Origin: Capsulimonadaceae bacterium
Lineage (GTDB): Bacteria; Armatimonadota; Armatimonadia; Armatimonadales; Capsulimonadaceae
Direction of reading: 5' to 3'
Assembly: GCA_965215505.1 (NCBI GenBank)
Contig: OZ244065.1
Span: 576,001-640,000 of the forward strand
DNA: 64,000 nt
Part shown: positions 31,681 through 33,932 of the stretch, in pieces
Layout: each line of letters starts with the position of its first letter
Position numbering within the stretch: the first letter of the stretch is position 1
Position numbers and translations under genes: made by a program
Notes under the pieces: generated by a model
The model's database searches: none
Told to the model about the DNA's origin: nothing
The model's input: the letters and a program-made list of their open reading frames with translations, nothing else

Positions 31681-32219
31681 ATGGAAGGCCCTATCAACAC
31701 GGAAGCTTGGCTCCGGCTCAACGCCCTGGAGTTCGCGCCGCATCGCCTGCACGCGCTGCTGGAGGCCTTCGGCGGGGACCCCACCGCCCTCTTCGCCTCT
31801 TCCGGCGCGGAGCGCGCGGAGCGACTGCCGCAGTTCAACGGAAAGCGGCTGGCGCACCTCAGCGCCGTCCGCCAGCGTGACTTCGCCCGCGAGCTCACGG
31901 CGCTGGAGAAGAGCGGCGCGCACCTGGTCACGATCCAGGATGCGTGCTATCCCGCGAACCTGCGCCCCCTCCCCGATGCCCCGCCGGTCCTGTTCGTGCG
32001 CGGCGAGCTGATCCCCGAAGACAAATTCAGCCTCGCCATCGTCGGGTCGCGCCGCGCCACCAATTACGGCCTGACACTCGCCTTCCAGTTCGCGCGGGAC
32101 CTTGTCGGGCACGGGCTGGCGATCGCCTCGGGCGGCGCGCGCGGCGTGGATACCTATGCCCACCGAGGCTCGATGGAGGGCGGTGGCCGTACCCTGGCTT
32201 TCCTCGGCTGCGGCGTGGA
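31681..32219 (+). pseudogene. dprA: DNA-processing protein DprA, 5' part (codons 1-180), interrupted by integrated element
   Basis: YPANL..PPVLFVRG, AIVGSR, SGGARGVDT.AH, FLGCGVD; homology stops at TGGA 32216-32219. Confidence 0.93.
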
Positions 32220-33932
32220 CACGCCCTGTACAGTATCCTCCCCTTCTCCTCCGTCCAGCAGCCCCGGCAGGTAGACGACCTCGGCCCCGTCCTTGCGGGG
32301 GATCACCTTCTCGATCACCGTCCCCAGCAGATCCCGCTTGCGTGCCGTCGCAACGTCCGGCGAGTCCAGCACGAGCCGCAGATCCGCGAGACCTTGAAGC
32401 CGCAGCGCCTCGTCGGAGGGGCGGCCCGAAGCTGCCACGCCCGGTCCTGCTGCCGCCCGATCCCGGTCCAGCGCCCGCCGAAGCATCCCGCGCCGGTCCT
32501 CCATGTCCTTCCGGCGCGCGGCCAGGTCCGCGAACACGGCGGCGTAGGCATCGGGGCTTGCCCCCATCCGCATCCCGGCCATCTGTGCCTGCACGGCCAG
32601 GAGGTCTTCCTGTGCCAGCTCCGCAAGCGCCCGGTCCAGCGCGGCCAGTTCCCGCCGCGCGTCCCCTCCCCCGCTCCCAGAGTCTGCCTCCTGCTGCCGG
32701 TAGCGCGCGAGCTGCGCCTTGACGGACGCGGGCCGCTCGGCGATCTCCGACAGGCTCAGGAGGACGGCGGCTTCCAGCATCAGCCGGTGGTAGGAGGTGG
32801 CCTCGCACTCCGCCGGCAGCCCGGCCCGCAGCGCCTCGACCCGGCGCTGGCATTGGTAGCAGTCCCACTCCTCCTTCTTGGTCAGCAGGAAGCGCATCCC
32901 GCCCCCGCAGGCCGGGCAGACGAGCCGCCCCGACAGGAGCCGGGTCCGTGCCGGCTGCCCGCCCTTCTGCGACTTGTTGAGGGCCGTCCGCGCCTGCGCC
33001 CGGTCCCAGGCGTCTTCGGAGACGAGGGCGGGCGCGGAAAGCGTCACCCACTGGTCGGGGTCGCTGGGGGACCTGACGACCGCGCAGCGATACGGCAGGC
33101 CGGACAGGGGGCTGATCTCCTGGAGGCGACTCTCCTCCTTGCGGTGCTGCACCCGGCCATACGCCGGCTGGCCCTTATGCACGGGGTTGGCGAGAATGGC
33201 CTTGATCGTCGGGGGCCGCCAGGCGCTCGCCCCGCGCGGGGTCGGGATGCTCTCGGCGTTCAGCTCCAGGCACAGCCTGTGCATCGAGTGCGTCCCCGCC
33301 GCGTAGCCAGCGAAGATGCGGCGCACGACGGCCGCCTGGTCCTCGCGCACGACGTAGCGCCCCAGCAGCTCCAGGGGGAAGTCGCCGCGCATGACGTCGG
33401 CCTTGGTGGGGACGTGGTAGCCGTAGGGAGCCAGCGCGCGGGCCGTTTGGATGCCCCGCTCGGCGAACGTCACCTTGCCCAGCATGGAGCGCTCGCGGAA
33501 GTGTTCGCGTTCGAAGACGGCGAAGTCGCCCCGGATGTTAAAGCTCAGGTTCCCGGCGGCGTTGTCCTGATAGTCGGCGTCGGTGAAGACGAGCCGCCCG
33601 CCCGCCGCGCGCACGGCCTTCTTGATCTGCTCCTGGTGTTCCCGGTCCCGGCTGTAGCGGTCGATGTTGAAGGTGATCAGCGTATCCGCCCGGCCCGCCT
33701 GGAGGTCGGCGAGGGCCGCCTGCATCCCCGCGCGGGTCAAGAGGAACGCGCCCGACACGGCGGCGTCGTAGTATTCGGCGATGATCGGCAGGCCCAGGGC
33801 GAGGGCCTTGGCGCGGCAGGCGTCAAGCTGGCTCTCGGGGCTGCTGCCGTGCTTGTCCTGCTCCGTGCCGGAAACGCGCGTCACGATCACCGCGCCCCGC
33901 ATCCTGGTTGACTTCGCTGCTGGCTTGTTCAC
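32154..33932 (-). CDS. Large serine recombinase (resolvase, recombinase, zinc ribbon and coiled-coil domains)
   Basis: VTRVS catalytic Ser, DRYSRD, PYGY, ILANP, ALVSEDAW, LLSGRLVCPACG; GTG start overlaps the xis stop. Confidence 0.93.
   Translation of the reverse strand: MNKPAAKSTRMRGAVIVTRVSGTEQDKHGSSPESQLDACRAKALALGLPIIAEYYDAAVSGAFLLTRAGMQAALADLQAGRADTLITFNIDRYSRDREHQEQIKKAVRAAGGRLVFTDADYQDNAAGNLSFNIRGDFAVFEREHFRERSMLGKVTFAERGIQTARALAPYGYHVPTKADVMRGDFPLELLGRYVVREDQAAVVRRIFAGYAAGTHSMHRLCLELNAESIPTPRGASAWRPPTIKAILANPVHKGQPAYGRVQHRKEESRLQEISPLSGLPYRCAVVRSPSDPDQWVTLSAPALVSEDAWDRAQARTALNKSQKGGQPARTRLLSGRLVCPACGGGMRFLLTKKEEWDCYQCQRRVEALRAGLPAECEATSYHRLMLEAAVLLSLSEIAERPASVKAQLARYRQQEADSGSGGGDARRELAALDRALAELAQEDLLAVQAQMAGMRMGASPDAYAAVFADLAARRKDMEDRRGMLRRALDRDRAAAGPGVAASGRPSDEALRLQGLADLRLVLDSPDVATARKRDLLGTVIEKVIPRKDGAEVVYLPGLLDGGEGEDTVQGVSTPQPRKARVRPPPSIEPRWA
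32216..32239. other. Left attachment junction (core TGGA plus element arm CTGTACAGTATCCT)
   Basis: Arm 32226-32239 is the exact reverse complement of 49378-49391. Confidence 0.88.

Follow-up and report, generated by a model that had tools for sequence, protein, structure and literature searches.

What becomes of a site-specific recombinase when the attachment site on which it acts lies within its own gene is the question raised by a 64,000-nucleotide stretch of DNA from a Capsulimonadaceae bacterium (Armatimonadota; GenBank assembly GCA_965215505.1, contig OZ244065.1, positions 576,001 to 640,000), hereafter called the window. The window carries an element that splits the gene dprA and encodes a large serine recombinase (LSR; gene int), and an original prediction, made from the nucleotide sequence, had placed the attachment site inside the recombinase open reading frame (ORF), so that integration and excision would exchange the C-terminus of the enzyme between two states. 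The junction and the translations of both states agree with this claim. We consider it highly probable that the LSR drove the insertion of its own element into dprA, that the attachment site attP is embedded in the 3' end of int, that recombination consequently swaps the tail of the protein, and that this layout is inherited within a clade of LSRs, where it is held in place by its role as DNA and where the tail encoded by the circular form represents the native C-terminus.

The boundaries of the element are defined by the gene that it interrupts. The 5' half of dprA (31681..32219, plus strand; Pfam DNA_processg_A, profile positions 2-111) and its 3' half (49398..49970, plus strand; DNA_processg_A, profile positions 109-211, followed by DprA_WH) were both aligned to intact DprA, and they are divided at a single Asp codon by 17,180 bp (32220-49399). 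When rejoined by script, the two halves abut exactly and encode 369 residues with zero internal stops. The protein P0124, an intact homologue of DprA with 369 aa and 93% identity to the 3' half, spans the join as LGCGVDIHYPSEN, which is exactly what results from fusing both window halves at the common Asp codon. Since P0124 spans the join and the halves share this one codon, 32220..49399 constitutes an insertion, and its bounds coincide with a tetranucleotide, TGGA, and with a pair of inverted 13-mers.

TGGA (32216-32219 and 49396-49399) is the sole sequence shared by attL and attR, as identified by comparison of the sequence and of the arms, and the two half-sites of attP lie on either side of this core. 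The P' half-site (32220..32247, minus strand) falls within the int codons for GEGEDTVQGV and holds a perfect repeat at 32226-32238, and the P half-site at the far end of the element (49370..49397, plus strand) holds its counterpart at 49379-49391. Throughout the 64 kb, the 13-mer GGATACTGTACAG occurs exactly only at these two places, on the minus and the plus strand, respectively; with up to two mismatches allowed there are four sites, compared with 0.36 expected, and four were reached in 0 of 100 shuffles. Joined at their ends, the arms agree over 14 consecutive positions, and attP forms a palindrome of ∼40 bp in which two perfect 13-bp inverted repeats flank a 14-bp centre, with GA at 32218-32219 at the centre by symmetry. 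Inverted 13-mers together with a 4-bp common core fit the short palindromic attP and the unrelated attB that are typical of LSRs. Each half-site of phiC31 attP is bound through the recombinase domain at positions 4-15 and through the zinc-ribbon domain at positions 17-27 (10.1101/2025.05.02.651858); by analogy, the perfect repeat in the window, which corresponds to approximately positions 8-20, may be contacted in a similar fashion. A further inverted match of 14 nt (CGCCTCGGGCGGCG at 32124-32137 and its complement at 49348-49361), linking the 5' half of dprA with the region coding for the circle tail, was considered and set aside: it is asymmetric about the crossover, other 13-mers of the same kind are seen as well, and it is probably a chance match in GC-rich DNA.

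The gene int is itself an LSR gene. In the integrated form it encodes 582 aa (32154..33902, minus strand; Pfam Resolvase, Recombinase and Zn_ribbon_recom). The minus-strand ORF is open throughout 32154..34052, with the frame reaching a GTG at 34052, and the ATG at 33902 (M51 of the ORF) is the likely start codon, as judged from a database copy of 582 aa and from a resolvase domain that begins at ORF residue 55. This resolvase-type catalytic domain (PF00239, E 6.9e-23, ORF residues 55-200) is accompanied by a Recombinase domain (PF07508, E 9.9e-15) and a zinc ribbon (PF13408, E 2.2e-6); among the Pfam matches of the window integrase there are serine recombinase domains only and no tyrosine recombinase domains. 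Within the RVS motif, S11 (numbered on the 582-aa protein), which we take to be the nucleophile, is nearly invariant in an alignment of 42 sequences. The AlphaFold model, obtained with 42 relatives (mean pLDDT 80.6), predicts long paired helices at residues 411-445 and 450-485, a feature of the coiled-coil insertion, and its best Foldseek matches are full-length LSRs, namely those of SPbeta (9dxh, E 1.8e-21), phiC31 (9rah) and Bxb1 (9iu2), with E-values up to 4.7e-15 and identities to the solved LSRs of 13-19% over full-length alignments. In the 582-aa protein, the last strands modelled with confidence are at residues 530-536 and 539-544, and pLDDT is below 50 at residues 552-555 and 557-582. 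Toward the C-terminus, the folded zinc-ribbon domain is thus followed by the acidic, glycine-rich linker LLDGGEGE, by the residues D-T-V-Q-G-V-S encoded by the half-site, and by a tail that is specific for the state of the element. All three domains stay together in one ORF, and it is only the residues after ORF residue 612 that change.

That they change follows from the absence of a stop codon in the int ORF ahead of the crossover, which lies less than three codons past the T-V-Q motif; recombination therefore swaps the last residues of the enzyme. In the integrated state, translation confirms the predicted tail of 20 residues, which runs antisense to the 5' half of dprA (32154..32216, minus strand, 20 codons and a stop at 32154-32156), and the protein ends ...LLDGGEGEDTVQGVS-TPQPRKARVRPPPSIEPRWA, that is, EDTVQGVS-TPQPRKARVRPPPSIEPRWA. 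Once the ends of the element are joined, the same frame continues after the common Ser codon from 49399 down to 49325 as S-IHCTVSFAKPYTASGGVCAWSVR; this circle tail (49325..49396, minus strand) comprises 23 codons and stops at 49325-49327, only 8 nt from the stop of the convergent gene 48336-49316, precisely as had been proposed. The circle tail ends in -AWSVR and the integrated tail in -PRWA, and an ssrA-like -AA ending is found in neither tail of the window element. Scans for terminators and promoters at both junctions yielded nothing above the level of shuffled sequence. Antisense transcription from int into the 5' half of dprA is possible, because there is no terminator-like site between the int stop and dprA.

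The codons with which the half-site is written suggest that it is maintained for the sake of DNA. The half-site on the element side, GGATACTGTACAG, itself represents the codons for D-T-V-Q. While int has a GC content at third codon positions (GC3) of 0.90, the D-T-V motif is written GAT-ACT-GTA, and each of these codons is rare in the gene: GAT accounts for 6 of 37 Asp codons, ACT for 1 of 21 Thr codons, and GTA for 2 of 36 Val codons, where the sole ACT is that of the motif and the second GTA sits in the tail derived from dprA. Four relatives have GAT/GCT-ACT/GCT-TTA-CAG in frame at the same place, and TTA makes up 2/47, 3/48, 4/37 and 4/41 of their Leu codons. We infer that these rare codons persist because the half-site is maintained as DNA by binding of the recombinase.

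A search over 5.8 billion proteins retrieved relatives of which the best 120 of 130, spanning 100% to 27% identity, were analysed. With the end of the folded domain taken as a strand resembling G-A-x-V-x-F-L-P-G, 82 of these 120 proteins could be scored, 38 being left out as truncated, frameshifted or too divergent, and the expected motif rate (4.6%) was derived from how often the pattern occurs in the protein bodies. The motif T[LVFI][QH] is present within 60 residues past the domain end in 50 of the 82 scorable homologues. It is separated from the domain by a mostly acidic linker of 0-47 residues, and all 50 proteins that bear it run on for at least 5 residues (range 5-172, median 21). The original prediction had named homologues ending ahead of the attachment site as evidence against it; the homologues that carry the motif instead all read through it. 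For the wider clade, a profile search among 1.84 billion representatives brought up a list of 150 proteins (141 new), most of which retain (E/Q)-T-V at the same place.

What follows the motif in these proteins depends on the target gene: the tails cluster by target and not by similarity of the integrases. Antisense-dprA tails are found in P0005-P0008 and P0010-P0013 (the dprA-targeting relatives P0005-P0013 being 52-81% identical), sense DprA winged-helix tails (with the Pfam match inside the integrase protein) in P0014 and P0018, shikimate kinase tails in P0077 and P0096, and cupin tails in P0024, P0051 and P0075, and about a dozen further tail types recur. Even among relatives that are 71-81% identical to the window protein (P0005-P0008), the length of the integrated tail beyond the domain end changes from 35 to 57-65 residues. 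Integrated tails thus look unselected, since they are dictated by the target, variable in length and, in the model of the window protein, predicted to be disordered.

Two side observations concern these tails. Firstly, in P0014, P0018, P0077, P0096, P0024, P0051 and P0075 the integrase reads through into the target in sense orientation and in frame, so that it ends in a DprA winged helix, a part of shikimate kinase or a part of a cupin, domains that are matched by Pfam within the integrase; for P0014 and P0018 the site is a second one in dprA, located at the codons for LTLQP. Secondly, the 113-residue tail of P0028 is first of the type seen in P0045, P0062 and P0103 (DTFPSTVGTS...) and then of the antisense-dprA type (STPHPKYARVRPPPS...), which would fit two junctions in series, e.g., in nested or tandem elements.

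The layout was also sought in DNA collections. Phage and plasmid records (364 and 272, respectively) contain only distant LSRs, all below 60% identity and none covering 80% of the query; the best phage (28%) and plasmid (32.5%) matches cover approximately the N-terminal 57-71% of the protein, and these records yielded no relative in the free form. Scanning genome contigs with the single protein gave 201 pattern matches and zero relatives. When genomes representing species were scanned with a profile, 33 loci emerged, almost all of them in metagenome-assembled genomes of Armatimonadota, with dprA near none of the 33. A second element end was sought, as inverted and as direct repeats, in 16 intact loci, and a convincing one was found at L020 only, where inverted 13-mers are combined with a 15-bp direct repeat whose copies are ∼10 kb apart (1641-1655 and 11707-11721). 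L020 lies at the 3' end of a gene, probably dnaN to judge from the C-termini of DnaN proteins, that encodes a product ending ...ADYLCVLMPMQVV. As with the window element, the integrase ORF continues across the junction whether L020 is integrated or circular: after the common ...GAGRV, the integrated form ends in KRVTTLFRV and the circle form in NNCPTQVRARVRGGVCVFSV. Taken together, the protein tails and this one further locus with both ends show, at the level of sequence, a layout inherited across a mostly Armatimonadota clade of LSRs with differing targets. One group of relatives, comprising L020 and, by their int 3' ends, L004, L013, L016, L017 and L025, has its insertion site at the 3' end of a gene, probably dnaN, whose product ends ...LMPMQVV; there the common core is 15 bp long, compared with 4 bp in the window, and L020 is opposite in orientation to L017 at the same site.

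Comparison of the two circle tails gives a hint that the free form of the C-terminus is under selection. The window tail reads GGVCAWSV and that of L020 GGVCVFSV, so that 6 of the 8 C-terminal residues are identical, although the two integrases share only 44% of their residues overall and have different targets. When composition was preserved in shuffling, such an identity was reached in 8 of 20,000 trials, and none of the 119 other C-termini of the family attains it. The Ser codon (TCG vs AGT) and the Val codon (GTT vs GTG) differ between the two tails, and peptide-level conservation is therefore indicated. Furthermore, 16 of the last 18 codons of the window circle tail have G or C at the third position, near the GC3 of the gene (0.90), which taken alone is weak evidence. 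Hence, of the two kinds of conservation for which the original prediction had suggested looking in homologous elements, that of an attachment site within int is borne out by 50 of the 82 scorable homologues, whereas for the circle tail there is a single sign, the 6 of 8 residues shared with L020.

Several observations weigh against parts of this picture. (i) LSRs cross over at a central dinucleotide, and within TGGA this dinucleotide is placed from symmetry; the choice among the possible 2 bp of TGGA makes no difference to the sequence of either protein form. (ii) The strict motif is lacking in 32 of the 82 scorable homologues, most of which have near variants such as TLY, TLT, IVQ or DTF. (iii) Ahead of the differing Ser and Val codons of the circle tail, 13 nt are identical at the same spot in the window and L020, so that a DNA element, and not the peptide, could be the conserved feature. 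(iv) A circle tail was read from DNA for L020 only, no second end being detectable within 10 kb at the 15 other intact loci. (v) P0081, the closest of the apparently attP-intact proteins (44% identical to the window protein), was tried and rejected as a third case of the C-terminal motif, given that its 4 of 8 matches are equalled or beaten by 15 of 119 family C-termini; a folded tail in P0081 was rejected as well, as its two modelled tail strands have a pLDDT of only 44-55 within a model of mean pLDDT 87.3, and a region search with the P0081 tail returned P0081 itself only.

The alternative that survives best is that the swap of tails is the very purpose of the layout, with the half-life of the recombinase, or its bias between integration and excision, differing by tail. 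In addition to the C-terminal motif shared between the window circle tail and L020, support comes from proteins that look as if they had been read from an intact attP. Their signature, defined by a regular expression as the motif followed by five residues and a mirror image such as C-T-V-S, is present in 15 of 261 proteins, about 10 of which appear credible by eye and 5 of which do not (P0014, P0018, P0020, P0278 and P0325). An -AA ending is found in 5 of the 15 signature proteins, compared with 5 of the 246 others (Fisher p = 6.6e-5), a pattern that was defined post hoc and serves as a lead only. Such an ending recalls ssrA-like tags, and the free-form-looking P0267, P0282, P0332, P0353 and P0358 end in EQAA, LKAA, RRAA, KKAA and AAA, respectively. 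It is also consistent with this alternative that a swap can alter the behaviour of the integrase of Mx8 (PMC6070905) and that, in phiC31 integrase, an acidic patch at the extreme C-terminus (D590-D592) contacts the directionality factor (10.1101/2025.05.02.651858), an acidic linker likewise preceding the swapped tail here. On the other hand, the window tails end in -WSVR and -PRWA and not in -AA, the tail is predicted to be disordered, and about 5 of the 15 members of the post hoc signature set are likely false matches. Moreover, it is the target that determines an integrated tail, and lengths range from 5 to 172 residues, which leaves such tails unable to encode a function specific to the integrated state. 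We thus regard it as doubtful that the swap is what the layout is for, and give a real regulatory difference between the two isoforms similarly limited credence. Its most specific version, in which a selected free-form C-terminus, such as a short β-hairpin or a degradation signal partly encoded by attP, is replaced by host residues, and in which recombination, besides the directionality factor, would set the lifetime of the enzyme or the balance of integration and excision, appears somewhat less likely still.

It is rather improbable that the element is a dead remnant, fixed in dprA with an inactive recombinase and isoforms that never alternate. The integrase frame is broken in 8 of the 24 near-full-length related loci (L005, L006, L014, L015, L019, L021, L022 and L023), and decay is therefore common in the family; the window copy, however, has an uninterrupted integrase ORF and flawless 13-bp repeats, and its two dprA halves score strongly in Pfam and rejoin without a stop. 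Finally, we consider it very improbable that the layout is a meaningless consequence of read-through in 70% GC DNA, where stops are rare: although 130 ORFs of at least 60 aa occur in 23 kb, many of them long, spurious and overlapping real genes, and although the antisense frame of the integrated tail shares its third codon positions with dprA, and such a frame tends to stay open in GC-rich genes, chance does not account for a half-site that is in frame at the same place of the protein in 50 of 82 homologues against 4.6% expected, that no motif-bearing homologue follows with a stop within 5 residues, and that is written in rare codons.

In the explanation that we favour, an LSR-driven insertion with attP at the 3' end of int, the overlap would exist first for the sake of the DNA, binding of the recombinase holding the half-site in place, and would yield a compact module from which neither int nor the attachment site can be separated. 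Because the flexible acidic linker would tolerate any extension encoded by a target, the integrated isoform may well stay competent for excision. The circle tail would then be the native, element-encoded C-terminus, and integration probably deprives the enzyme of some function that this tail serves, for which turnover, synapsis and contact with the directionality factor are candidates.

Known systems combine some of these features. The closest precedent, by analogy, appears to be the Myxococcus phage Mx8, in which attP likewise lies inside the int coding sequence and int, on integration, acquires a different 3' end but stays active (PMC6070905); the behaviour of the Mx8 integrase is reported to change as IntP is converted to IntX upon integration (PMC6070905). 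Mx8 Int is, however, a tyrosine recombinase whereas the window enzyme is a serine recombinase, and in the window only a tail predicted to be disordered, past the folded domains, is exchanged. The primary work on Mx8, as cited in the review, is reportedly that of Tojo (1996) and Magrini (1999). In some mycobacteriophages, integration-dependent immunity involves the removal of a degradation tag from the repressor. The mycobacteriophages BPs and Brujita resemble the window element in that attP lies inside a gene and integration changes the C-terminus of its product (PMC4557955). They differ in that the gene is that of the repressor and the integrase is a tyrosine recombinase, and neither tail of the window element has an ending resembling a degradation tag; the IntP/IntX pair of Mx8 is the nearer parallel. 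In the archaeal ‘suicidal’ integrases of the SSV type (SSV1, pTN3 and pT26-2), the attachment site also lies inside the integrase gene, forming a compact int-att module, but these are tyrosine recombinases and integration breaks up their gene into an N and a C part, both inactive (PMC8371274). The window gene, in contrast, stays whole and keeps all catalytic and DNA-binding domains. Self-disrupting recombinases are stated to be known only in archaea (PMC8371274).

Characterised LSRs, namely those of phiC31, Bxb1, SPbeta, Listeria LI/A118 and TP901-1, share with the window enzyme the order of domains, the fold, what appears to be a short palindromic attP and a target inside a gene, and the available portions of the sources on them make no mention of an attP inside the integrase ORF. 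A survey of LSRs retained only those within 500 nt of their attachment sites, and its available portion makes no mention of an overlap of these sites with coding sequence (PMC10083194). A non-exhaustive keyword search of the open-access literature likewise revealed no serine recombinase with attP inside int. Hence, an attP within int is known from the tyrosine recombinases of Mx8 and of the SSV type, and what appears to be new here, on the evidence of sequence comparison, is the serine-recombinase version, together with a half-site that doubles as codons, a clade-wide layout, variable integrated tails, and the match between the circle tail and that of L020.

The remainder of the element is consistent with an integrative island. 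Directly upstream of int lies an HTH_17/excisionase-like gene (33929..34171, minus strand; Pfam HTH_17, E 2.8e-8; best E 6.9e-6 to PHROG excisionase families), a candidate for the directionality factor. The gene convergent with int (48336..49316, plus strand), whose stop is 8 nt from that of circle-form int, encodes 326 aa without a family match, and other cargo includes a PIN_8 protein, a GDSL hydrolase, a DnaB-N/DUF3987 helicase-like protein and several ORFs without a family match. No phage structural genes were found among the 15 element ORFs scanned, some small ORFs lying outside the scan, and the element for this reason looks more like an integrative island than a complete prophage. Two patches of ∼50% GC (34000-36500 and 41000-42000), in an element and genome of 65-72% GC, coincide with the genes for the PIN_8 protein (34367-36229) and for the GDSL hydrolase (41158-41745); recent acquisition of this cargo is suggested. 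At attR, an ATG supplied by the element (49395-49397) is in frame with the 3' half of dprA (ATG-GAT-ATC...), and the resulting ORF (49395..49970, 191 aa) could express the C-terminal half of DprA, including the winged helix. The 6.18-Mb contig on which the window protein is recorded also encodes a second, shorter LSR relative (P0112, of 404 aa and with 47% identity across 64% of the query), which is absent from the window ORFs examined.

The one-way behaviour of serine integrases has been attributed to their attachment sites and coiled coil, together with a separate directionality factor. With the site placed in its own last codons, the enzyme would in addition register the state of the element, free or inserted, and enzyme and site would be bound into one inseparable module in which a DNA-binding site and a coding sequence constrain each other, visibly so in the rare codons of a GC-rich gene. 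For the host, the element would inactivate dprA reversibly, which fits the reported enrichment of DNA competence genes among LSR targets (PMC10083194). For the clade, the layout means that an integrase taken from a genome has a tail of host origin, in the extreme a whole fragment of DprA, shikimate kinase or a cupin, and is not the native free form, which matters both for the annotation of such enzymes and for mining them as tools.

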